From Callorhinchus milii (lineage: Eukaryota), in NCBI RefSeq assembly GCF_018977255.1, contig NW_024704742.1, forward strand, positions 24,430,001 through 24,494,000: a DNA stretch of 64,000 nucleotides. Reading direction: 5' to 3'. Of this stretch, positions 3,135 to 63,279 are shown piece by piece. The notes beneath the pieces were generated by a model. The model was given only the letters and a program-made list of their open reading frames with translations. It was not told the origin of the DNA and did not search any database. Each line of letters opens with the position of its first letter. Positions within the stretch are counted from its first letter, which is position 1. Position numbers and translations under genes: made by a program.

Positions 3135-3485
3135 AGCTCCGGCCTGCTTCACGTCCCCCGCCTTGCTCGCCTGTCCCCGCCTAACAACAACAACATCCCC
3201 CGCCTTACCCACTATCTGCGGGCAGGCCTTCCGACACTCTTCTCCCGCACTCTGGAACTCCATCCCACAGTCCCTTCGTCTCGCTCCCTCCCTTGCCACC
3301 TTCAAGACCCACCTCAAAACCCTCCTCTTTGACCGTGCTTTCGATCTCCCTGCTTCCCCCCCCGCCTACGCCCCCTCCCCCACCCCGACCCTCAGCTCGG
3401 GTCCATAACTCTTGTCTGTCCAGCGCCTTGGGATGTCCTCCCAATGTGAAAGGCGCTAAACAAATGTAATTTTGTTATTGTTGTT
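3135..3485 (+). mobile_element. L2 3' fragment
   Basis: Translates ...AFRHSSPALWNSIPQSLRLAPSLATFKTHLKTLLF; ends in the gcgccttgggatgtcctccc...aaggcgct tail and TTG repeats. Confidence 0.85.
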
Positions 3486-4080
3486 CCTATTTATGTTCGA
3501 GTCCAAACACTGTTTGAATACCACAATCAAGCCTGATCCCCATAAAGCTACTGCAGAGAAAAAGTTGCTGGATAAAGTCAGAACAGGAACTCTGGCTGAT
3601 TTCCCTTTCTGTAACCCAAGGCTGGTGAGGTCAGGTTTAGCTTCCTCACCACCTCAGCTGAGATCCTGCAATATTTAGAATCCAAATCCCAATTTGTGTT
3701 GTATTCTCAGCAGAGATGCTTCTTCTAGAAGGAGGGAACATGCATGTTATTATCCCATACATTTGAGGGTTGTTTTAGTCAACCTGATGTTCAACATATG
3801 GAAATCCATCAGCAGACCAGGTTGAGAGTTCCACCTATATATGTCTCAAAACCCTTCACAGGATTTATTGTAAAATGTAGTGACTGCATTTTGTAGGTGA
3901 ACATGTTTCCATAACACTTCCATAAAGTACTGACCAGTTTGTTAATCTACAACATGAATGTCTCCCAGGCCATTGGTTTCAGAGTTGGGACACCTGAGGT
4001 TCAATGCGGGGAATTAATCTCCGATGCTGTTATCATGTCATTTTAGAGGTGCAGGCAATTGCTCTCAGAGCAAAATGTGT

Positions 4081-4490: not shown

Positions 4491-4768
4491 TAATATAAGC
4501 AAATTGTTACCTTGGTAGGCCACTGGAATTGAGTTACATGGACACTGGAATCTTCTGCTGCTTTGCTCTAGTGCCCATTCTTTGTGGATAAGCCTAGACA
4601 GTGGAGTTGTGTAAAGACATGTGCACAGACAGAATTACATGTGCCATTAATTATTGTAATTGATAACCAATGAAAGTAATTTGTTGTCAATTACATAATT
4701 GAAGCCACCTGTAATTCTCCCTGTGCGCATGTTTTTACACACAGTTTTTGTGGAGTGCTGTAGAGTGG

Positions 4769-7700
4769 GGAGTGGCGGCAGGACAGCGCGGGGAGGAACC
4801 TGGGCCTACCTTCTCAGGTACTTAAACTCGACGCGGCAGGGAGTCCAGCTACGGGGGGTTGGGGGGGTTGGGCTGTGGGGGGTGGGGGCAGAGCGGGTGA
4901 ACCGCTGACGTCATAGTTTAGTTTTCAGGAGTGTGCGCGCGCAACAAAAAAAAAACCTCTGCGCCCCCCCCGGGCTCAGAGCCCACCATGGTCCTGTTGG
5001 GTTGGCTGCCCCAGCCTACGGGATAATGCCATCAACCTGACCGCTCGCTCCCGGTCCCCGCGTGCGCACTATGGCTGCCGCTTTGACCCGAGGCCCCTCA
5101 CCCCCTCCCTCCCTCGTCCCTCCTCTCTACCCCCAAACCCTCCCCCCTCTGCATCTCTCCCGCTCTGTCCTCCTCTCTCTCCGTCCCTCTCGCCTTCTAT
5201 CTCCACTTGACCCTCCCACAACCTCCCTCTGTTCCAGCCTGGGAATCCTCCGCCGGGCTCACCGTGGCACTCGGCGTTGGCTGTCCAGCAGCAGCCACAC
5301 CGACTGCCCCATTCCCCACCACACTCGCCAGCCACCCCGGACACAGACCCGGGGAGCCAACCTCTTCTCCCTCATCCCCATTTCCCCCACCCCTGCTTCA
5401 CAACCTGGACCCCCCTTCCTCCCCACACACCCTTCTGTCAACCGTTCTCTCCACATCGGACTACAAAACGTCCGCTCCCTCTGTAACAAGGCCCTGGTCA
5501 TCAACGATCTCATCCTTGAGCGTTGACATCATGGCCTTAACGGAAACCTGGCTCACCCCAGGCGACACCTTCCCCCTCACGGAGGCCACACCACCCGGCT
5601 ACACCTCCCACCACATCCCTCGCCCCAACCGCCGTGGCGGTGGTGTAGCCCTTATCTCAAGGACACCACTTGCCCTATCCCCCTACTCCTCTGGCTCTTT
5701 CCCCTCTTTCGAGCACCTCACCCTCTCCCACCCCTTCTTCATCTCCCTCAAAATCCTCCTCCTCTACCGGCTTCATAAAACCTCTCCCACCTTCATCTCC
5801 GATTTTTCGACACTCCTTACATCTCTCTGCCTTTGCTCTGATCGCCTCATCATCCTGGGCGACTTTAACCTGCACTTCACCCCCTCCTGCTCCATCTCCT
5901 CAGACTTCTCTTCCCTGCTCTCCTCGCTCAACCTCTCCCTCCACATCAACTCCCCCACTCACAGTCACGGCCACCCACTCGACTTGGTGATCACCCGGGG
6001 CCTCAGTGTCGCGGATGTCACTATTAGCGACAAGGCCGTCTCCAACCACCACTTCACCACCTCCACCCCCCCTCCCCACCTCCACCAGACCCACCATCTT
6101 CTACCGCCCCTGGAAGAAGTTACCCCCACAATCCCTAACTGCTGCCTTGGAGTCCTCTGAACTCCTCTCCCTCTGGCCTTCAACCCTCACTGACCCCTCT
6201 TCTCCTCTCACCCTCCTCCACAACACCCTCTCCTCCACACTCGATACTCTTGCCCCCATCACCTCCCGTACTGTCTCCTACTCTCGCTCCTCCCCCTGGT
6301 TCACCACCCACCTCCGCTCACTGAAAAGCCAGGTGCGGGCCGCTGAACGCACCTGCGTCAAATCTGGCCTAACGGTCCACCGACAAATCTGGCTGGACCT
6401 CCTCAAAATCTTCCGCTCCACTCTAGCCTCGGCCAAGTCGTCCTTCTACTCCAGGATAATCCTGGAGGCGAAGAACAACCCCAGGCTACTGTTTTCTACC
6501 ACATCCCGACTCCTCCGTCCCCCCCGCCACCCCGCGCAGGTCATCTCCTCCAACCTTCACTGCGAGGAGATGCTGGATTTCCTTGAATCCCAAATCAAGG
6601 GAATTCGCTCCGCGGTCACTTCCCCTCCAACATCCACCCATCCCCCACCCCCTCCCTCCCACACTCCGACTCCTCCACATCCTCCCCTACACACTTTGGT
6701 ACCCGTTTCCCCACCCTCTGTCACCAAACTCATCCTATCCATGAAACCCACCACCTGCTCCCTTGACCCCATCCCCACTCCACTCCTTATCTCCCAGCTC
6801 CACCTCCTTGCCCCACATATCACAGACATCGTCAACCTGTCCCTCTCCTCTGGCTCTGTTCCCATTCCCTTAAAAACTGCCACCATCACTCCCACCTTGA
6901 AAAAACCCTCCCTTGATGCGTCGCAGCTATCAAGCTACCGGCCCATCTCCAACCTCCCCTTTCTCTCCAAGGTCCTGGAACGAATTGTCGCCTCCCAGCT
7001 GCGCTCTTTCCTCTCCACCCATTCACTATTCGAACCCCTTCAGTCGGGTTTCCATAGCACAGAAACTGCCCTGGTCAAGGTCACCAATGACATCCTGACC
7101 ATCTGTGACCAGGGCTCCCTCTGTCTCCTCGTCCTCCTCGACCTATCGGCAGCATTCGATACGGTCGACCACGCTATCCTCCTCCACCGCTTGTCCTCCC
7201 ACCTCAACCTTCAAGGCACTGTCCTTGATTGGTTTAGGTCGTACCTCTCCCACCGTCTTCACTTTGTTTCCACGAATGGCTTTTCCTCCAGCCCCCGCAC
7301 TGTCTCGTGTGGTGTCCCTCAGGGCTCTGTCCTCGGTCCCCTCCTCTTCACCCTCTATATGCTCCCCCTTGGTGACATCATCCGCAGACATGGGGTTAAC
7401 TTCCACATGTATGCGGATGACACCCAACTCTACCTTTCCTCCTCTACCCTCAACTCCACGACCACCGATGTCCTGACAGCTGCCTGTCCGACATCGAGTC
7501 CTGGACGAGAGACAACTTTCTTCAGCTCAACGTGTGTAAAACTGAGGCCCTCCTGATTGGCTCACGTCAGCGCCTCCGCACCTCAGGCGCCGACACCATC
7601 AGCATCCAAGGCTGCACTCTCCACCTCTCAAAGCCAGTCAGGAACCTCGGCGTTCTGTTCGACCCTGAGCTGTCCTTTCTCCCTCACATCCGCACCACAA

Positions 7701-8373
7701 CTGGCACCGCCTTCCATCACCTCCGGAACATCGCCAGACTACGGCACTACCTCACCCCTCACGCTGCTGAAACTCTGGTCCACGCCTTTATCACCTCAAG
7801 GCTGGACTATGGGAACTCTCTCCTCGTCGGCCTTCCCACCACCTCCCTCCACAAGCTGCAGGTCATTCAGAACTCTGCAGCTCGCGTACTGTCCCGCACC
7901 AGGCTTCGGGACCACATCACTCCCACCCTCGCTCGCCTCCACTGGCTCCCCATCCCCCAGAGGATCGATTTCAAGATCCTCATCCTCACTTACAAGGCCA
8001 TTCACGGCCTTGCTGCCCCCTACCTCTCCGACCTACTATCCCCCTATCTACCTGCCCATACTCTCCATTCCTCTGCTCCGGTCTGCTCCACATCCCCCGC
8101 CCCAACCGCCCCACTTTCGGTGGCCGGGCCTTCAGCCCCCAGGCTCTGGAACTCATCCCCCAGTGCCTTCGCCGCCTCCTCCCTTTCCTCCTTCAAGGCC
8201 GGTCTCAAAACCTTTCTCTTTGACCGAGCCTTCAGCTCCCCTCTCGACTCTCTTCCCCCTCCTCGCTCCCTCCCTTCCCTCCCCCTGACCATTTCCCCCC
8301 TCCTCCCTCCTTGGGACGTCCTCCTGACATGAAAGGCGCTCTATAAATGGAATCTTGTTGTTGTTGTTGTTAT
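4769..8373 (+). mobile_element. L2-clade LINE, apparently full length (~3.6 kb, single ORF), inactivated by frameshifts
   Basis: APE motifs (NVRSL, LTETWL, GDFN) in ORFs 5062..5526 and 5207..6160; RT motifs ([33 protein letters not shown]) in 6006..7556; L2 C-terminus (HAFITSRLDYGNSLL, LHWLPI) in 7532..8332; 3' stem-loop plus (TTG)n tail. Confidence 0.95.
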
Positions 8374-8722
8374 TGGTTAGAGCATTTGCCTTGCATGCGA
8401 GAGGACCTGGGTTTGATTTCCCAGGCAAGGCAAAACTTTAGGCAAGTTTCTTTACTCCACATGCCTCTGTTTACCGAGCAGTAAGTAGGAACCCTGTTGT
8501 TAGTCGACTGGAGGATCACTTTTTCTTGGGTCTTAATCACTTCAAAAAAATAAATAATTTGGTCACTCAATCCACGACTGTTTGTGGGACACTGCTGTGC
8601 GCAATTGGCTGCTGCGTTTCGCCCACAAAACATAGTCAATTCACTTTACAGTATATTTTGTAAAGCGCTTTGAGACATCTCGATGACGCGATAAGGCGCT
8701 ATATCAAATGCAAGGATTATAT
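8374..8722 (+). mobile_element. tRNA-derived SINE (longer subfamily); its first bases lie at 4752-4768, split off by the L2
   Basis: Remainder of tRNA head (tggttagagc...gggtttgatt), CORE-like segment, Deu-like gctgtgcgcaattggctgctgcgtttc, L2-like tail and (ATT)n. Confidence 0.85.
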
Positions 8723-18200: not shown

Positions 18201-18701
18201 GCATAGAGATAGGTTTCCGCGTGTGTTAAACACCCGACTGACCCAAAAGAAAATTACTCATGAAATATACCCAGCAATTTATTTGGAAGATTCCCTCTTG
18301 CTGCCCTCAGCATTTCCCGGAGCTGTGGGAACTGTTTTGTTTAGTGTGGAACTGTTGAGATGGTGCAGGGTGACAGCACCTCTGTGCTAGAGGTGGGAGG
18401 AACACTGTTCGAATCTGATTCAATCACAGGTGACTACAGCATGAGTGTGCATTGAGATCTGGCCACAAAAGTGCACAAGGCTTCACCGACTAATCCACGC
18501 TCCATTCTTCTCCTAGCAGAGGCATGTCAGTCCAATTGGCTACAGATGCAAATCAGAAATTTCCAAACACTTGGCTTAATTTTGCCACATTTCTTAACAA
18601 GGTTACTTGATACAGAATCCAACCAGTCTGAATGGGGAGGCCTTTCCAATAACAAATATGTTACGCTGATATAGGAACAGGAGAAGGCAATTTAGCTCCT
18701 C

Positions 18702-19426
18702 AACAACAACAACAAGATTCCATTTATAAAGCGCCTTTCACATCAGGAGGACGTCCCAAGGCGCTGTACAGTTGGGTCAGGACCCGAGCAGGGGGAAATG
18801 GTCAGGGTGAGGGGAGGGAAGGGAGGGAGGGAGGAGGGGGGAAATGGTCAGGGTGAGGGGAGGGAAGGGAGGGAGCGAGGAGGGGGAAGAGAGTCAAGAG
18901 GGGAGCTGAAGGCTCGGTCAAAGAGAAAGGTTTTGAGACCGGCCTTGAAGGAGGAGAGGGAGGAAGCGGCGAAGGCACTGGGGGATGGAGTTCCAGAGCC
19001 TGGGGGCTGAGAGGCTGAAGGCCCGACCACCGATGGTAGGGCAATTGGGGCGGGGGATGTGGAGCAGACTGGAGCCAGAGGAACGGAGGGTACGGGCAGG
19101 TAGGTAGGGGGATAGTAGGTCAGAGAGGTAGGAGGGAGCGAGACCGTGAATGGCCTTATAGGTGAGGATGAGGATCTTGAAATCAATCCTCTGGGGGATG
19201 GGGAGCCAGTGGAGGCGAGCGAGGGTGGGTGTGATGTGGTCCCGAAGCCTGGTGCGGGACAGTACACGAGCTGCAGAGTTCTGAATGACCTGCAGCTTGT
19301 GGAGGGAGGTGGCGGGAAGGCCGGCGAGGAGAGAGTTCCCATAGTCCAGCCTTGAGGTGACAAAGGCGTGGACCAGGGTTTCAGCAGCGTGAGGGGTGAG
19401 GTAGTGCCGTAGTCTGGCGATGTTCC
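18702..19426 (-). mobile_element. Young 5'-truncated L2, same subfamily as 4769-8373
   Basis: Reverse complement is nearly identical to ~7724-8370; (CAA)n tail on + strand; flanked by TCCTC (18697-18701, 19424-19428). Confidence 0.93.
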
Positions 19427-28407: not shown

Positions 28408-29361
28408 TGAGATGAAAACATATACCAACTGAGCCAGTCTAACATTTTACTGTCTATCATCCATTGATTGCTACCAATGCCAGTCTTTTTACTATGTCTT
28501 TAGAAATGGGATTTCCAGTTGTAAGAGATCAAAATAATTGCTATTTTTAGTGACCATCATCTGATAGACACCATTCCTACCGACTTTTAGATAGAAATCA
28601 ATCACAAAGACAGAAACTATAGATTTAGGTCCTTGTTCCTTCCAGACTTTTAAGTGAACCTTTTTACATATCTTGGTGGATTTGAGTAACACATTTTTCT
28701 TGTTCAGTTGCTCCATTATCTCTTTAAAACACATCCAAAAGAAGCTAATCCCATTGCCTCAAATCATGAGAGTCAGAGCTGGTAAAATAAATATGCTACT
28801 CCTGTATTTTGAATCTCTTTCAGATGCACTTGGTGATTATTCTGAAAATAGCCCTCAAACATTCGATTTCATGGCCTATTTGGAATGATAATGTCTGCTT
28901 AGTCATTTGAGATACAATCAATGCCTTCTTTGTGCAATGAAATTTCAGTCATTCATTGCTACTTTACTGTTGTCTCACTCAAATGTCAAAATTACTGTAA
29001 ATGGAGTATTTTCTCAATGTACGGGGATAGGGGGGGAATATTGTGAAATATTTCATTTACTTCTCGGGGAACAAAACTGTAAATTTATTCCCCTTATCAC
29101 AGGCTGCAGGAAACAGGGAGAACCTTTTATTGTCGAGACATGAAGTGATAATCTCTTTCAGCCTTTAAAAGCACTCTTCAGATCATCTTAATCATCTTGA
29201 GAATTTAGTACCATCCAAATACACAACAGTACCTGTGTGTTGTGATATGCTGTGTCTCCAATCGATTCCAGAAAAATTCTCCAAACAAATGGGATTAAAA
29301 CAAATTATGAAGAATTAAATTTATACACGTTTCACATTAAATTTATTTCTTTGCTGATCAA

Positions 29362-32090
29362 TAACAACAACAAAATTACATTTGTATAGTGTCTTTCACG
29401 TCAGGAGGATATTCCAAGGTGCTGGACAGTCAAGAGTTTCGGACCTGAGCTGGGGGTTGGGATTGGGGAGGTTGGAGGGCATGGGGGGAAGCAGGGTGAT
29501 CGAAAGCATGGTCGAAGAGGAGGATTTTGAGATGGGTCTTGAAGGAGGCAAGCGAGGGGGCGAGGCTGAGGGACTGTGGGATGGAGTTCCAGAGGGTGGA
29601 GGCAGAGTGGCAAACGGCCCATCTGCCAATAGTGGGGTGAGTGAGGCGGGGGAATGTGAAGCAGGCCGGAGCCCGCTGAATGGAGGGAGCGAGCAGAATG
29701 GTAGGAGATTAGGAGGTTACAGAGGTAGGGGGGAGCAAGACCACGGAGGGCTTTGAAGGTGAGAACCAGGATCTTGTACTGTATCCTCTGTGTGATGGGA
29801 AGCCAGTGGAGTCGGGCAAGGATGAGGGTGATAGGGTCGTGGAGCCTATTGTGGGAGAGGACACGGGCTGCAGAGATCTGGATGATCTGCAGCTATAGAG
29901 GGAGGAGTTGGGGAGGTTGACAAGCAGCGAGTTTGCATAGTCAAGCCTCATTGTAATAAAAGCATATATGAAGTTTCGGCGGCCTGTGGTGTGAGATAAT
30001 AGTAGAGCCAGGTGATGTTGTGGAGGTGGGGGAAGGCAGAGCGGTTCATGGCACGAATGTGGGGTAGAAAGGATGGTTGAGGGTCAAACAAGAGGAGGGT
30101 TTTGAGACGTGCCTTGAAGGAGGCAAAGGAGGGAGCAAGGCAAAGGGAATGTGGGATGGAGTTCCATAGGCAGGGGGCAGAATGGTTGAAGATGGAGTGG
30201 GCCGGGCGGGGGACATGAAGCAGGCCAGAGGGTGCTGATTGGAGGGAAAGGACAGATTGATATGGAGTCAGCAGGTCACAAAGGTAAGGAGGGGCAAGGC
30301 CGTGGAGGGCCTTGAAGTCGAGGACGAGGATTTTGAACTCTATCCTCTGGGGGATGGGGAGCCAGTGGAGCTGGGTGGGGGTGATGGGTTCACGGAGCCT
30401 GGTGCAGGAGAGGACATGAGCGCCAGAGTTGGGAAGGCCGACAAGCAGGGAGTTGGTGTGGTCGACCCTAGATGTGATGAATGTGTGGATAAAGGTTTCG
30501 GCGGCCTTTGAGGTAGTGGCAGAGCCGGGCAATATTGCGGAAGTGGGAAAGGCAGAGCGGGTCATGGCACAGATGTGGGGTAGAAGGGCAGTTGAGGGTC
30601 AAGCAAGATGACAAGGTTCCAGACTGGCTTAGCAAGGTGGAGTGTGCATCCAAGGAATGGTGGTGCTGTCAGCGCCTGAGATATGGAGGCGCTGACGTGA
30701 GCCAATCAGGAGAGTCTCGGTCTTGTTGACATCCAACTGAAGAAAATGAGCTCTCATCCAAGACTTGATGTCCGACAGAGCTCATTTTCTTCAGTGGTCC
30801 TGGAGTCAAGGTGGAGGCAGAGAGGTAGAGTTGGGCATCATCCACATACATGTGGAAGTTGACCCCATATCTACGGATGATGTCACCAAGAGGGAGCATA
30901 TAGATGTTGAAAAGGAGGAGACCAAGGACAGAGCCCTGAGGAACGCCGCACGAGACGGTGCGGGGGCTAGAGGAGAAACTGTTTGTGGAGATGAAGTGGA
31001 GGCGGTGTGAGAGGTACGATCTGAACCAGAGTTTTGAAGGTTGAGGTGAGAGGAGAGGTGGTGAATGAGCATAAAGTGGTTGACGGTGTCAAAGGCAGCA
31101 GAGAGGTCAAGAAGGACGAGGAGGCAGATGGAGCCCTGGTCACAGATGGACAGAATGTCTTTGGCCCTTTGACCAAGGCTGTTTCTGTGCTGTAGGCGAC
31201 ACGGAAACCCGATTGGAAGGGTTTGTGAAGGGAGTAGTGGGAGAGGAAGGAGCGAAGCTGGGAAGCAACAACAACAACATTTGGATTTAAATAGCGCCCT
31301 CCACGCCGGACGGTGTCTCAGAGCTCTTTACAGTAACGGATCCCGGGGCCGAGCCAGGGGGAGGGGGAGAAAGGTGACCAAAGACGCGGTCGAAAAGAAA
31401 GGTCTTCAGCAGAAACCTGAAAATGGGAAGGGAGGGAGCGAGGCGAAGGGAGTGAGGAAGGGAGTTCCAGAGCCTCGGGGCATAATGGCTGAAGGCACAG
31501 CCACCGAGGGTGGAGTGGAGGACTCGGGGGACGAGGAGGAGGCCAGACCCGGAGGAACGAAGGCAACGGGTACTGTTTTGAGCAACAACTCGTTCCAGGA
31601 CCTTGGAGAGAAAAGGGAGGTTGGAGAAGGGGTGGTAGTTTGAGAGTAGAGATGAGTCCAGGGAGTTTTTTTTAAGGACAGAAGTGATGACAGTAGTTTT
31701 TAATGGGGTGCAAACAGTACCAGTGGACAGGGAGAGGTTTATGATGTCTGTGAGTAGAGGGTCAAGGAGGTGGAGCTGGGAGGTAAGGAGAGGGGTAGGG
31801 ATGGAGCCAAGGGAGCAGGTGGTCGGTTTCATGCAGGTGATAGTGGTGGTGAGAGAGGAGGGGGAGACAGGTACGAAGGTGTGGAGGGAGAGATGGTTAG
31901 GGGCCGGGGGGGAGGGTGAGGTGAGCGGAGTGTAGCAGACAGAAGGGCAGAAGCAGCTGAGCAGATCAACTTTGGATTCAAGGAGGTCCAGCAATGACTC
32001 GCAGTTGGTATTAGAGTTGAGGATGGACGAGGGGTGAGAGGGTGGGTGGAAGAGCAGGTTGGTGATGGAGAAGAGGAACCTGGGGTTGAG
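29362..32090 (-). mobile_element. Composite of at least three L2 fragments
   Basis: Minus-strand ORFs 29709..29951, 29948..30565, 30669..30899 (FHMYVDD) and 31287..31994 carry L2 RT and C-terminal motifs; two (CAA)n tails at ~29362 and ~31267. Confidence 0.9.
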
Positions 32091-33734
32091 GCTATTTACT
32101 ATTTCAATTAGTAAATAGAAAATTGATACAAATGACAGTAAACATTTTCTTGAAGCACATTTTGTGTCAGATCAGTTTTCATCATAGATACCTTTCAGAG
32201 TCCTTGCTTGGGGTTATTCACATCTTATCCTTGCATTACATTGATGAATTCCTTAGACGATACAGCCAAAGCCGCTGAAGACGGACACAGGTTAACCTAG
32301 GAGCCTGGGTAAATCGGACAAAATGCTCGGGCCCCAATTCATTTGAATTCCTGCTTGTTTAAAATATGACGGTTAATTCGGACAAAAAAAACACATCATC
32401 CAGACAAACTGCTGCGCTGGTCACCACTGAGATGGGAGGGCTCAAATTGTGATTGATTAACAAGTTTGGAACTGCTTGTGAATGGATGGAGTACCTCAGA
32501 GCCGCCACTAGTTAGTCCCCCTGAAATGAGACATTAAACCAAGGTCTTGTCTACCTATTCAGATGGATATTAAAGATCTCATGATGCTGTTTGAAAAGAG
32601 AAGGATGTTTCTCCTCTTGTCCTGGCTAATAATCCCTCAAATGAAATTCTTATTCACTTTATGGCTGTTTGTGGGACATTGCTGTGTGCAAATTGACTGT
32701 CACTACACTTTATAGTAGATCATGTGAAGTGCTTTGAGACATCCTCCTGATGTGAAAATCGCTATATCAAATGCAAGGATTTTTTTAAATTTATGCTTCT
32801 GGTGCTGACCTGCCCCTGTAGCTTTTAATATTATTGTAACTTTCCCCACCCCCTTTACTGGCCTAATGGTCAAATTCTAAATCCCTAATTGTTTAAGAAT
32901 TAGAATTAAAATAATGTTTAATGTTAAAGTTTGGCCCGCTTCAGTCACCAGAACTCGATCTGTTTTCCATGTCTGAATTCTGCCCACTCATCCTTTGAAA
33001 CCCTGCTGTTTTATGTTTTCCCCACCCCACTTTCCTCCCTAATTGTGTTTGAAATAGCATCAATTGAGTTAATGAAAGACATTGACCTCATCAACTGGGC
33101 TTTTGCCATTTAGTTTTGTGATTTAGTGAGTGCTGTCTGGGTGTTGAGATATAGTTATCACTGAGAGAAAAATGGGTTCTGTTCGTACTTGGCAGATCCA
33201 GCACAATCTGTGCAGATCACAATAAAGTAGGTCGAAATAAGGAGCACATTTTTAATGAGTGTCAATCGGTTGCTGGAAAGCTACTGGTTAGTTTGAAATT
33301 GATAATTAGGATCTCTAAAGTACTTGGCTGGTGCTAACCTTAAGCGGCTGGAAAAAAGGTTGCAATTAAGAAATGGTAAGCATTGTATTTCAGTATTGCT
33401 TACTCTTGAAGTGCACAGGCAGGCTGGAGGGAATTCTCTGACTTTGCTGGTATATATTGAGTTCAGCAATTTTATTCATGAGCTTGCAGTTGGGGGCCTG
33501 GAACAGTCCCAGAACTTTGTTGCTGTGCAGAATGGATGAATGTTAATGGAACAGAGCCTTGACATTTTGATGCGTCCTTATGCAACACCCACACTGGAAC
33601 AGCCGTTGCAACACTGGATGCTTTGCTTCTAACTGTGCGGATGAAATTCACTGAATTGTCAACATTGACTTTTTTTAAAAAAAATCTGAAGAAAGTGAAA
33701 TGGCTTAAAAAAAACTGTATTTCTGCCTTTTCAG

Positions 33735-57466: not shown

Positions 57467-58748
57467 TGCACACACCCCTCCCTACAACACACCCACATGC
57501 ACCCTTCCCCACATACACTCACACCCTTCCCCACACACACATAACTCCACACTCACACACGCACACTCATACCCCTCCCCACATACACTCACACACACCC
57601 CTTGTCACATCACTCAGACACAAACCCCTCCCCACACACACACACACTCACAAACACCCCTCCCCACACACACACACTCACAAACTCCCCTCCCACATAC
57701 ACACTCAAAGCCCTCCCCACACATACACACCCCTCCCCACACACTCGCAGACACCCCTCCCCACACACTCATTCCCCCTCCTCACACACCCCTTCCCACA
57801 CATTCACAAACGCCCCTCCCCACATACAACAAGATTATATTTGTATAGCGCCTTTCACGTCAGGAGGATGTCTCAAGGCGCTGGACAGTGCACAGCATCT
57901 CAGACCCGAGCTGGGGTCAGGGAGTGGGGGAGCGGAGGGGAAGGGGGGTGGCCGATGGCATGGTCGCAGAGGAGGATGTTGAGGTGGGACTTGAAGGAGG
58001 CTAAGGAGGGGGCGAGGCGGAGTTACTGGAGGATGGAAGTCCAGAGGTTGGGGGCAGATTGGCTGAAGGCTCTCCTGCTAATGGTGGGGCGGGTGGGTCA
58101 GGGGACATGGAGCAGCCGGAGCCGGCTGAGCGGAGGGAGCGGGTGGGCTGGTAGGGGGTTAGGAGGTCGCAGAGGTAGGATGGGGCGAGGCCATGGAGGG
58201 CTTTGTATGTGAGGACCAGAACCTTGTACTGGATCCTCTGAAGGATAGGGAGCCAATGGAGTCGGGCGAGTGGGGGAGATGGGGTCACGGAGTTGGGTGC
58301 GGGAGAGGACACGGGCTGCAGAGTTCTGGATTATCTGCAGCCTGTGGAGGGAGGAGGTGGGAAGGCCGACAAGCAGAGCATTTGCATAGTCGAGCCTGGA
58401 TGTGATGAAGGCGTGAACAAGAGTTTCATACACTCACAACCCCTCCCTACACACCCCCACCCACACACACCCCCACCCACAGTCCTCCCCACACACCCCC
58501 ACACACACCCCCACACCCCACACCCACATACACCCCCACACACACCCACACACACACTCCTCCCCACACCCACACACACCCACACACACACCCACACACA
58601 CACTCCTCCCCACACCCCCCCCCCACACACATACACCCCCCACACACACATACACCCCCACACACACCCCCACACACACCCCTCCCCACACACCCCCACA
58701 CACCCCTCCCCACACAGCCCTCCCCACGTACTCTTACACACACACATC
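57467..58748. repeat. CA/C-rich low-complexity tracts (57467-57825 and 58428-58748) either side of an L2 fragment
   Basis: Degenerate CACAC/CCCCAC/CCCTCCC repeats. Confidence 0.9.
57826..58427 (-). mobile_element. L2 3' fragment embedded in CA/C-rich simple sequence
   Basis: ORFs 58098..58433 (ETLVHAFITSRLDYANALL) and 58001..58312 (LHWLPILQRIQYK); L2 tail at ~57830-57890. Confidence 0.9.
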
Positions 58749-61556: not shown

Positions 61557-62480
61557 CACTGTGTTGAGCCGGGCTGCGCTGTGTTGAGCCGGGCTGCGCT
61601 CTCTTGAGCCGGGCTGCGTTGGCCTGCGCTATGTTGGACTGCGCTATGTTGGACTGGGCTGCGTTGAGCTGGCCTGGGCTGCGTTGAGCTGGCCTGGGCT
61701 GCGTTGAGCTGGGCTGTGTTGAGCTGGGCTGGGTTTTGTTGGGCTGGGCTGGGCTGTGTTGGGCTGGGCTGTGTTGGGCTGGGCTGTGTTGGGCTGGGCT
61801 GTGTTGGGCTGGGCTGCGTTGGCTGGGCTGCGTTGGGCTGGGCTGTGTTGTGCTGGCCTGGGCTGTGTTGGCTGGGCTGGGGCTGCGTTGGGCTGGGCCG
61901 GGCTGCGTTGGGCTGGGCCGGGCTGCGTTGGGCTGGGCCGGGCTGCGTTGGGCTGGGCTGGGCTGCGTTGGGCTGGGCTGGGCTGCGTTGTGCTGGCCTG
62001 GGCTGCGTTGGGCTGGCCTGGGCTGCGTTGGGCTGGGCTGGGCTGCGTTGGGCTGGCCTGGGCTGCGTTGGGCTGGCCTGGGCTGCGTTGGGCTGGGCTG
62101 GGCTGCGTTGGCTGGGCTGCGTTGAGCGGGCCTGGGCTGCGTTGAGCGCCTGGGCTGCGTTGGGCTGGGCTGGGCTGCGTTGGCCTGGGCTGCGTTGGCC
62201 TGGGCTGCGTTGGCCTGGGCTGCGTTGGGCTGGGCTGCGTTGGGCTGGGCTGCGTTGGGCTGGGCTGGGCTGCGCTGGGCTGCGCTGGGCTGGGCTGCGT
62301 TGAGCTGGCCTGGGCTGCGTTGAGCTGGCCTGGGCTGTGTTGAGCTGGCCTGGGCTGTGTTGGGCTGGGCTGGGCTGTGTTGAGCTGGGCTGGGCTGCGT
62401 TGGGCTGGGCTGCGTTGGCCTGGGCTGTGCTGAGATGTATTGTGCTGAGATGTGCTGAGCTGGGCTATGCTGAGCTGTCC
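61557..62480. repeat. Pentamer-based G-rich satellite in MND1 intron 2
   Basis: Mosaic of GGGCT, GCGTT, GTGTT, GAGCT and GGCCT pentamers over ~920 bp. Confidence 0.97.
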
Positions 62481-63279
62481 TGAGCAGACTCACTTCTTGC
62501 TGGCCTTCATAGTGGCCGGGATATCGACTTTGATTGCTTATTTGCTATCTTCTCACGGGATTCATACCATTATAATGCCCACCCCCCCCCTCCCCCTCCC
62601 CCCACCCCGGATTAGTCCGGTTTGCCAGGTCCAAGTATATTGCTCTTTAGAAGCCCAGTGAGCTACGTGCAATATGTAGTTGCATTCCTGGAGCAGTGGA
62701 ACCTTTCATGTTTGACTGGTACTATGTAACACAACTGTTTGGAGCTGTTCTGGGCGATAATAATTTGGTCCTACTCCATTGCAATACAGTGCAACAGATT
62801 TATTATTCTGTTTCAGACTCAGGTTTATAGATTACAAGAATGGGACTCTGTTTCAAATTTACTGTGGTTTTGATGCAGTGCCAATACACGACACACGTAC
62901 AAAATTAGTCTTGAGACTGTCAGCTGACTTGTATGCTATTGAGTGGAACAGTCTTCAGTAATAATACCCTTTCAATAATAGTGATTATTTACAAATAACA
63001 GATGAGTGTGTTATGACACGAATCAAAGTTTCAGAGAGCCTGACACCAAATAACAGGTGTCAGCCTGGCTCACTTGGTGGCACTCTCACCTCTGAGTCAG
63101 AAGATTGTGAGTTCAAGCCCCACGTCAAGACTTTGAACTGTGATGCAGTGATGGGAGAGCACTGCAATATTGGAGGTACTGTCCTTCAGCTGAGATGTAA
63201 ATCTGCCTGTTCAGCTGGATGATAAATATCCCATAGCACTATTTGAAAACAGAAAGGAGCTTCTCCTGATATCCTGATT

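Follow-up and report, generated by a model that had tools for sequence, protein, structure and literature searches.

Two short upstream open reading frames and a conserved start-codon block in the 5' leader of an L2 element assigned to CalMil_L2-1

The element and its surroundings

The window, by which we mean the whole 64,000-nt stretch of Callorhinchus milii DNA analysed here, carries on its forward strand a retroelement whose parts are collected in Table 1. Judged by its sequence, the stretch in question is the 5' leader of a frameshifted copy of an L2 LINE without ORF1, belonging to the family CalMil_L2-1 of this species. A motif search in the supplement of PMC13343379 matched the CalMil_L2-1 consensus, which is 3882 nt long (supplementary tables 2-3), and this match, together with the domains for endonuclease (APE) and for reverse transcriptase (RT), upholds the initial annotation in its description of the stretch as an L2 5' leader. 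ORF2 is intact in 141 of 326 copies of CalMil_L2-1 (table S3) and in 0 of 92 copies of CalMil_L2-2, whose consensus letters are of low confidence in the part of the leader compared below (PMC13343379).

Table 1. Features of the L2 element and its leader, in window positions
Feature	Positions	Strand	Basis or remark
One ~88-nt G+C-rich monomer; tandem in other copies	4767..4849	+	Depth onset near 4767; joint 4849->4767
Leader remainder: G-rich tract, TGACGTCA, A-run, C-run, no ATG	4850..4987	+	Segment order same as in consensus (by eye)
uORF1, 12 codons, first leader AUG, -3 A/+4 G, TAA 5024-5026	4988..5026	+	No other letter shown at ATG or TAA
TAATG stop-start overlap; TGATG in CalMil_L2-2	5024..5028	+	Sequence, contigs, consensus
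uORF2, 4 codons plus TGA, in ORF2 frame, closed 30 nt before ATG 5071	5026..5040	+	Family state
Conserved block: hairpin predicted (core 5053-5088, ATG 5071 within its 6-nt loop); alternatively a promoter-motif cluster	5043..5093	+	Fold, CalMil_L2-2
Start codon (most likely) of ORF2, then N-terminal extension of YS..LL / GILRR..HRG type, to first APE motif	5071..5523	+	blastp
Apurinic endonuclease domain	5504..6013	+	PF03372, E 6e-13
Reverse transcriptase domain	6900..7445	+	PF00078, E 1.7e-29
ORF2 C-terminal part, in another frame in the window copy	7463..8239	+	tblastn, P0095, P0116, P0176, ~50% identity
3' tail ending (TTG)5, shorter than in the related copy 18701-19426	8310..8371	+	Sequence comparison

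The reading frame of the window copy shifts near 5520, 6050-6070 and 7450-7480, and the frame of ATG 5071 takes in only the beginning of the APE domain. Successive frames of the element align to single fish proteins, so that its architecture is that of one ORF with APE and RT. The closest relatives of the RT, among the best 120 of 3088 matches, are fish proteins of 35-52% identity. A quick RT tree of 121 rows, with no labelled references among them, places the window RT inside no well-supported set; the rows nearest to it are fish proteins of the YS/HRG type, one of which, P0121, carries an esterase. Within the fetched set of proteins, the frame of ATG 5071 matches the N-terminal extension of the fish L2-type protein P0116 (blastp E 5e-12). 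As a lone query the 161-aa N-terminal frame had no matches in large database searches, and its homology became visible only inside the fetched set. A piece of P0076, a DNA2 gene model of Heptranchias perlo, is 62% identical to the window endonuclease and is probably an L2 fragment within a gene prediction.

Other repeats lie in the same window. On the reverse strand, 18701-19426 holds another member of this L2 family, 93% identical and truncated at its 5' end; its 3' region contains a tandem duplication and its tail is more complete. Other L2 families are represented by pieces of ~70% identity at 29359-32150 and 57826-58428 on the reverse strand and at 3193-3491 on the forward strand, none of them reaching the 5' leader. 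The tail of the element adjoins a SINE at 8374-8720 without its first bases, and the L2 ends show no evident target-site duplication; this SINE, presumably tRNA-derived, has several copies in the window with an L2-type 3' end common to them. Directly upstream of the element, at 4608-4741, there is an imperfect palindrome (80% over 135 nt), possibly a MITE. Rfam, searched with E values up to 1, gave no matches in the leader and three weak hairpin matches at 4608-4741 only, these being of miRNA type and far below the gathering scores. Finally, 61559-62485 is a tandem repeat array with ~80% identity between offsets.

The leader and its upstream open reading frames

Contigs of four of the 24 listed runs (X1, X5, X6 and X14) were aligned to 4700-5300 at a likeness of at least 80%. 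Their depths are summed contig figures, rare variants are dropped by contigs, X1 is possibly the window's own sample and X14 is a second organism. Contig depth begins near 4767, the joint leading from 4849 back to 4767 is present in X5 and X6, and three tandem monomers stand by eye at the start of the CalMil_L2-1 consensus. The window copy begins inside a monomer array. Over the first 400 nt of the consensus, which is the extent of our comparison by eye, the two share the monomer, the G-rich tract, the motif TGACGTCA, which we take to be CRE-like, the A- and C-runs and the start of uORF1 at nt 391. They differ in that the consensus has three monomers and the window copy one, diverging from them at roughly one letter in seven, and in the frameshifts of the window copy.

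Exactly three ATGs occur in the leader (4767-5075), at 4988, 5026 and 5071; in 4767-4987 there are none, against 2.5 expected. The uORF1 ATG is by eye also the first of the CalMil_L2-1 consensus, the 390 nt before it containing no ATG, and this agrees with section 15 of PMC13343379, according to which chondrichthyan L2s have no ORF1, and with the earlier claim that the element has no ORF1. The passages of PMC13343379 on CalMil_L2-1 that we consulted do not mention uORFs.

The initial annotation had placed GCCCACCATGG at 4981-4991, a 12-codon ORF (MVLLGWLPQPTG) at 4988-5026, a TAATG at 5024-5028 and a TGA followed by C at 5038-5040, and all these coordinates are correct, as is its statement that ATG 5026 shares a frame with GTG 5062 and ATG 5071. 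It had further proposed a check on the conservation of ATG 4988 and of the TAATG, and in the contigs of the four runs both turn out to be the family-majority state. Two tandem uORFs of 12 and 4 codons, joined by the TAATG, are thus the state of the family, and each ends before ATG 5071. The sequence TAATG is itself common, with 85 + 70 = 155 occurrences on the two strands of the window. The context CCRCCATGG is rare, being found at 1 of 2206 ATGs. Since the CalMil_L2-1 consensus has T at -1 of the uORF1 ATG, the shared context is -3 A and +4 G only, and comparison of the two sequences indicates that the near-perfect Kozak context at ATG 4988 is in part specific to the window copy or its subfamily. 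One in-frame insertion of 6 nt is the only indel shown in uORF1 by the contigs of the four runs. The stretch 4991-5024 within uORF1 folds as a predicted hairpin (z -3.2), and four family variants keep its pairing, but with P 0.15 this is not counted as evidence. The exact 25-nt leader pattern was found in 0 metagenome contigs. A degenerate uORF2 pattern gave 11 matches in viral contigs, all of which are chance, with no L2 sequence around them.

The initial annotation had suggested that the TGA at 5038-5040, the one stop between the AUG of the TAATG and the polyprotein frame, might be a CGA>TGA decay of a CpG in this copy. All four runs cover 5038 (a mean depth of 35,481 in the bin in X1, single contigs in X5, X6 and X14), and none of them shows a letter other than T there; the weakest of the variants shown reach at most a 15% share or a depth near 10, which leaves any hidden variant smaller, below ~15%. 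None of the 40 variable places shown, out of 56 in 4700-5300, falls at 4988-4990, 5024-5028, 5038-5040 or 5071-5073, and in X14 all 10 variable places are accounted for outside codon 5038. Single CpG sites at 5090, 5251 and 5264 show 1-2.5% decay in X1, as against at least ~85% T at 5038. A private change of the window copy at 5034, synonymous in uORF2, is clearly visible in the contigs (21,808 of 21,909). The series of stop-ATG, three codons and TGA is moreover kept in a divergent loose end of X1 and in the CalMil_L2-2 consensus, whose CpGs are retained. The TGA is the state of the family. One may still imagine an active master that had CGA at 5038, with the UAAUG opening the polyprotein and the window copy mutated afterwards: one of the six T>C places of X1 is among the 16 variable places not shown, so that a minor C subfamily is possible, and the contigs, at least 80% alike, drop rare variants. 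With T the majority in four runs of four and the TGA present in CalMil_L2-2, this history is largely refuted and we give it hardly any credence. Because the TGA belongs to the family, the AUG of the UAAUG leads to a dead end of four codons and not, as had been thought, into the polyprotein.

CalMil_L2-2, compared like the bichir and opah sequences by eye only and without folding by program, matches the window copy free of gaps over 5013-5093, a match that takes in the stop-ATG overlap, the 4-codon ORF and the conserved block. It differs in having TGATG for TAATG and TTG for ATG 5071, an ORF2 AUG further downstream in another frame, and upstream ATGs in a long overlapping frame. Its counterpart of ATG 4988 is nearer by 10 nt, and the TGA of the TGATG does not terminate that frame; hence the 4-codon ORF is shared and the 12-codon uORF1 is not. 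Two other ORF1-less L2 5' ends, LeuEri_L2-2 and PolSen_L2-16, have by eye no such uORF. The metagenome relatives (80 loci, 28-63% identity) are too distant for a test of the leader. A long RT-bearing ORF is present in 12 of these loci, each with at least one ATG no more than 300 nt upstream of its first Met; in none of the 12 does a TAATG or TGATG fall on that Met, and one (L074) has an ATGA overlap.

Within the family, the nine variable sites in 4988-5070 spare the 11 signal positions with P 0.26. Against CalMil_L2-2, the eight differences in 5013-5042 spare the seven fixed signal positions with P 0.08, and TAA is exchanged for TGA. Conservation of the uORF signals is not significant.

Two further observations concern the leader. 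In the third frame, 4917-5210 on the forward strand is open for 97 codons without an ATG; by eye the matching frame of CalMil_L2-2 has two ATGs and forms a long uORF overlapping the ORF2 start, and the differences between the two show no third-position preference. Among the joints shown in the contig alignment none is of splice type; by eye, the leaders of the CalMil_L2-1 and CalMil_L2-2 consensuses have splice-donor-like motifs in the part matching 4920-4980, and the former has an acceptor-like site 3' of the C-run.

The ORF2 start and the block around it

From the sequence, ORF2 most likely starts at ATG 5071. No other AUG stands between uORF2 and the conserved N-terminal motifs of ORF2, all of which lie downstream of this one; like ATG 4988 it has A at -3 and G at +4. 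The HRG motif follows after 61 residues, the range among the 31 of 120 RT homologues with the motif being 10-209 (median 54). Moving the start 15 codons upstream would bring it to 76 residues from HRG, again inside this range, so the distance neither needs nor excludes 15 more residues. Placing the start of the 1128-aa top ORF2 of CalMil_L2-1 at the 5071 position leaves 22 nt between its end and that of the 3882-nt consensus, in agreement with the TAA at 8344-8346. This is a weak indication: the arithmetic is rough, mixing a genomic copy with a consensus, and both window copies stop earlier.

A fold of 5020-5100, computed before CalMil_L2-2 was seen, predicted the hairpin at 5053-5088. All eight differences from CalMil_L2-2 in 5043-5093 fall at unpaired positions of this predicted hairpin. 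In six local folds their mean unpaired probability is 0.86-0.99 against ~0.4, their placement is the best of 51 (or 36) circular shifts, and a same-base permutation gives P <= 8e-4. The eight are clustered, amounting to approximately four events, and no two-sided compensatory change is among them. The stability of the hairpin is not unusual (z -0.6 to -1.7), and folding 4900-5200 or 4767-5200 no longer yields it. We rejected a protein-coding constraint on the block at 5043-5093, the three frames having 1, 4 and 3 of the eight differences at third positions.

The motif of the 3' arm, TGGCTGCCGC, is present in 4 of ~1000 consensus 5' ends, all four of them L2, and lies within the first 40 nt of PolSen_L2-16 and L2-18. 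By eye, TGGCTGCCGC retains a pairing partner in PolSen_L2-16 and LamInc_L2-8, where the 5' arm is a different one. A related block is found at L2 5' ends in bichir and opah, and in the bichir L2s it forms the very 5' end. A shorter form of the 3'-arm motif stands beside AAGATGG motifs at the 5' ends of Rex1 and L2 elements, at 13 places in all (7 L2, 4 Rex1, 2 CR1), and these motifs resemble the YY1-like TISU element (PMC2518114). In the light of the predicted fold and these comparisons, the block may act as RNA, in the form of a hairpin, or as DNA, in the form of an old internal promoter; either way it may represent an old 5' end, upstream of which the monomers and uORFs were added later.

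Translation of ORF2 and its alternatives

The arrangement of the two uORFs is real and family-wide, and it is not a stop-start coupling to the polyprotein. How, then, might ribosomes arrive at ORF2? We think it rather probable that they do so by scanning reinitiation at AUG 5071 after uORF1, with leaky scanning adding to it, the UAAUG being a dead end and the output of ORF2p being lowered. Scanning ribosomes would initiate at AUG 4988 and terminate at UAA 5024; some would resume scanning and reinitiate at AUG 5071, 44 nt on, while others would come to AUG 5071 by leaky scanning. For ordinary reinitiation AUG 5026, with its overlap of the stop, stands too near, and its use would yield no more than four codons; on these grounds it would be a bystander or a weak decoy. 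The net effect would be a lower output of ORF2p, the role that translation of ORF1 has in LINEs with two ORFs, and more speculatively the hairpin around AUG 5071 may modulate initiation. It is plausible that in this way a short uORF replaces the lost ORF1 as a brake. This mechanism is argued from what holds in general for uORFs of small size. uORF1 has the features of a short uORF that permits reinitiation, namely 12 codons, -3 A/+4 G, a stop upstream of the main AUG and a gap of 44 nt; uORFs of fewer than ~30 codons that end before the main AUG are permissive for reinitiation, and most lower the output of the main ORF (PMC5972666, PMC10275272). In a bat L1, removal of the AUGs of small spacer ORFs made retrotransposition ~3.3-fold lower (PMC4072516).

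The uORFs could instead be passengers of a recently acquired 5' segment, kept by descent from few masters and of little effect, with ORF2 reached by leaky scanning or another route. The sparing of the signals, which falls short of significance in both comparisons, would suit such a view, as would the different frame of uORF1 in CalMil_L2-2 (by eye), the ATGs upstream of the first Met in all 12 metagenome loci with a long RT ORF, and the presence of short uORFs in approximately half of vertebrate mRNAs (PMC5972666). Yet in window copy and consensus alike, the AUG that comes first in a 390-nt leader is flanked by -3 A/+4 G, so that a scanning ribosome should use AUG 4988, the sole indel shown in uORF1 preserves its frame, and TAA is swapped in CalMil_L2-2 for another stop. 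We regard passenger uORFs as unlikely. Somewhat more unlikely is that an older promoter, the ancestral 5' end, survives inside the element as the block at 5043-5093 and gives rise to a transcript with a short leader and no uORFs that would supply ORF2p, the long monomer-derived RNA being the template. For this speak the related block beginning at nt 2 of PolSen_L2-16 and L2-18, the recurrence of ATGGCTGCCG (5071-5080) next to AAGATGG motifs among the initial 40 nt of L2 and Rex1 consensuses, and a YY1-like element containing AAGAUGG, described as acting in transcription as well as in translation where leaders are very short (PMC2518114). However, the loose ends listed for X1 (with 219 more unlisted) include no large class of copies starting near 5048, CalMil_L2-2 and the bichir elements are without the ATGG core at the matching place, and the differences from CalMil_L2-2 follow the pattern of a hairpin. 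One X5 contig begins at 5054.

A leaky stop would bring the initial proposal back in another form, with a UAAUG restart as in SART1 and readthrough of UGA-C helped by the downstream hairpin, giving an ORF2p 15 residues longer. Readthrough is favoured where UGA-C is combined with a 3' stem-loop; UAAUG as well as UGA-C is the state of the family, and the predicted hairpin starts 2-12 nt after the UGA. SART1 needs structure downstream of its UAAUG (PMC3894237, PMC5972666). Against this, a strong in-frame AUG stands 30 nt past the stop, so that readthrough is not needed, a start at 5071 agrees better, on a rough calculation, with the 1128 aa reported for ORF2, and stop-start coupling has been described after long ORFs (PMC10275272). 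The readthrough features are present in CalMil_L2-1, but UGA-C and the in-frame continuation are not conserved in CalMil_L2-2, where by eye the letter after the stop is T and the frame fails to continue into ORF2, though the hairpin block is kept. We consider a leaky stop very improbable. Returning to scanning reinitiation, one can extend it to the boldest reading compatible with the evidence: an L2 lineage that lost its esterase ORF1 might have put a 12-codon hairpin-forming uORF and a 4-codon decoy ahead of an ancient 5'-terminal hairpin whose loop displays the ORF2 AUG. The leader would then be a switch for reinitiation, gated by structure and under selection, possibly eIF2-responsive as in ATF4, that sets the dose of ORF2p, the hairpin being an undescribed RNA element of chimaera, bichir and opah L2s. 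We offer this extension as a doubtful one.

For the way in which LINEs without ORF1 limit their reverse transcriptase, 2A peptides have been put forward as an answer (PMC3894237). A leader of 100 nt with two uORFs would be a second answer, small and directly testable in a family with many intact copies, and the block around the start codon may be an unannotated cis-element of L2s; should the uORFs be passengers, they are an ordinary detail of a catalogued repeat. CalMil_L2-1 is already catalogued; what we describe would be, if it acts at all, a modest variant of control by uORFs, and the lead worth following is the conserved block. Our literature search, with most subscription papers outside its scope, turned up no publication dealing with uORFs, or with a 5' hairpin, in the leaders of L2s. 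The ORF1-less non-LTR elements that bear 2A have the same proposed need to damp ORF2p without ORF1 (PMC3894237), whereas the brake in the window L2 would be a uORF; the motif DxExNPGP of that paper is by eye absent from the three frames of 4900-5590.

Among the systems with which the leader can be compared, SART1 shares the UAAUG overlap in a non-LTR element and possibly structure downstream of it (PMC3894237, PMC10275272, PMC5972666). In SART1, however, a long protein-coding ORF1 is coupled directly to ORF2, which the AUG of the UAAUG opens without a stop, whereas in the window L2 an ORF of 12 codons overlaps one of four, closed by TGA in all four runs and in CalMil_L2-2, and the ORF2 AUG lies 44 nt on. 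The structure downstream of the overlap, the hairpin at 5053-5088, is predicted in local folds only and lost in longer ones. Reinitiation of the GCN4/ATF4 type likewise involves short uORFs ending before the main AUG, but in the window L2 the spacing from uORF to AUG is much shorter than in GCN4. Translation of ORF2 in L1 offers a likeness in distance, 44 nt being comparable to the L1 spacer of 63 nt (PMC5972666), and, should the leader work as proposed, another in the dependence of L1 on an upstream stop (PMC4072516).
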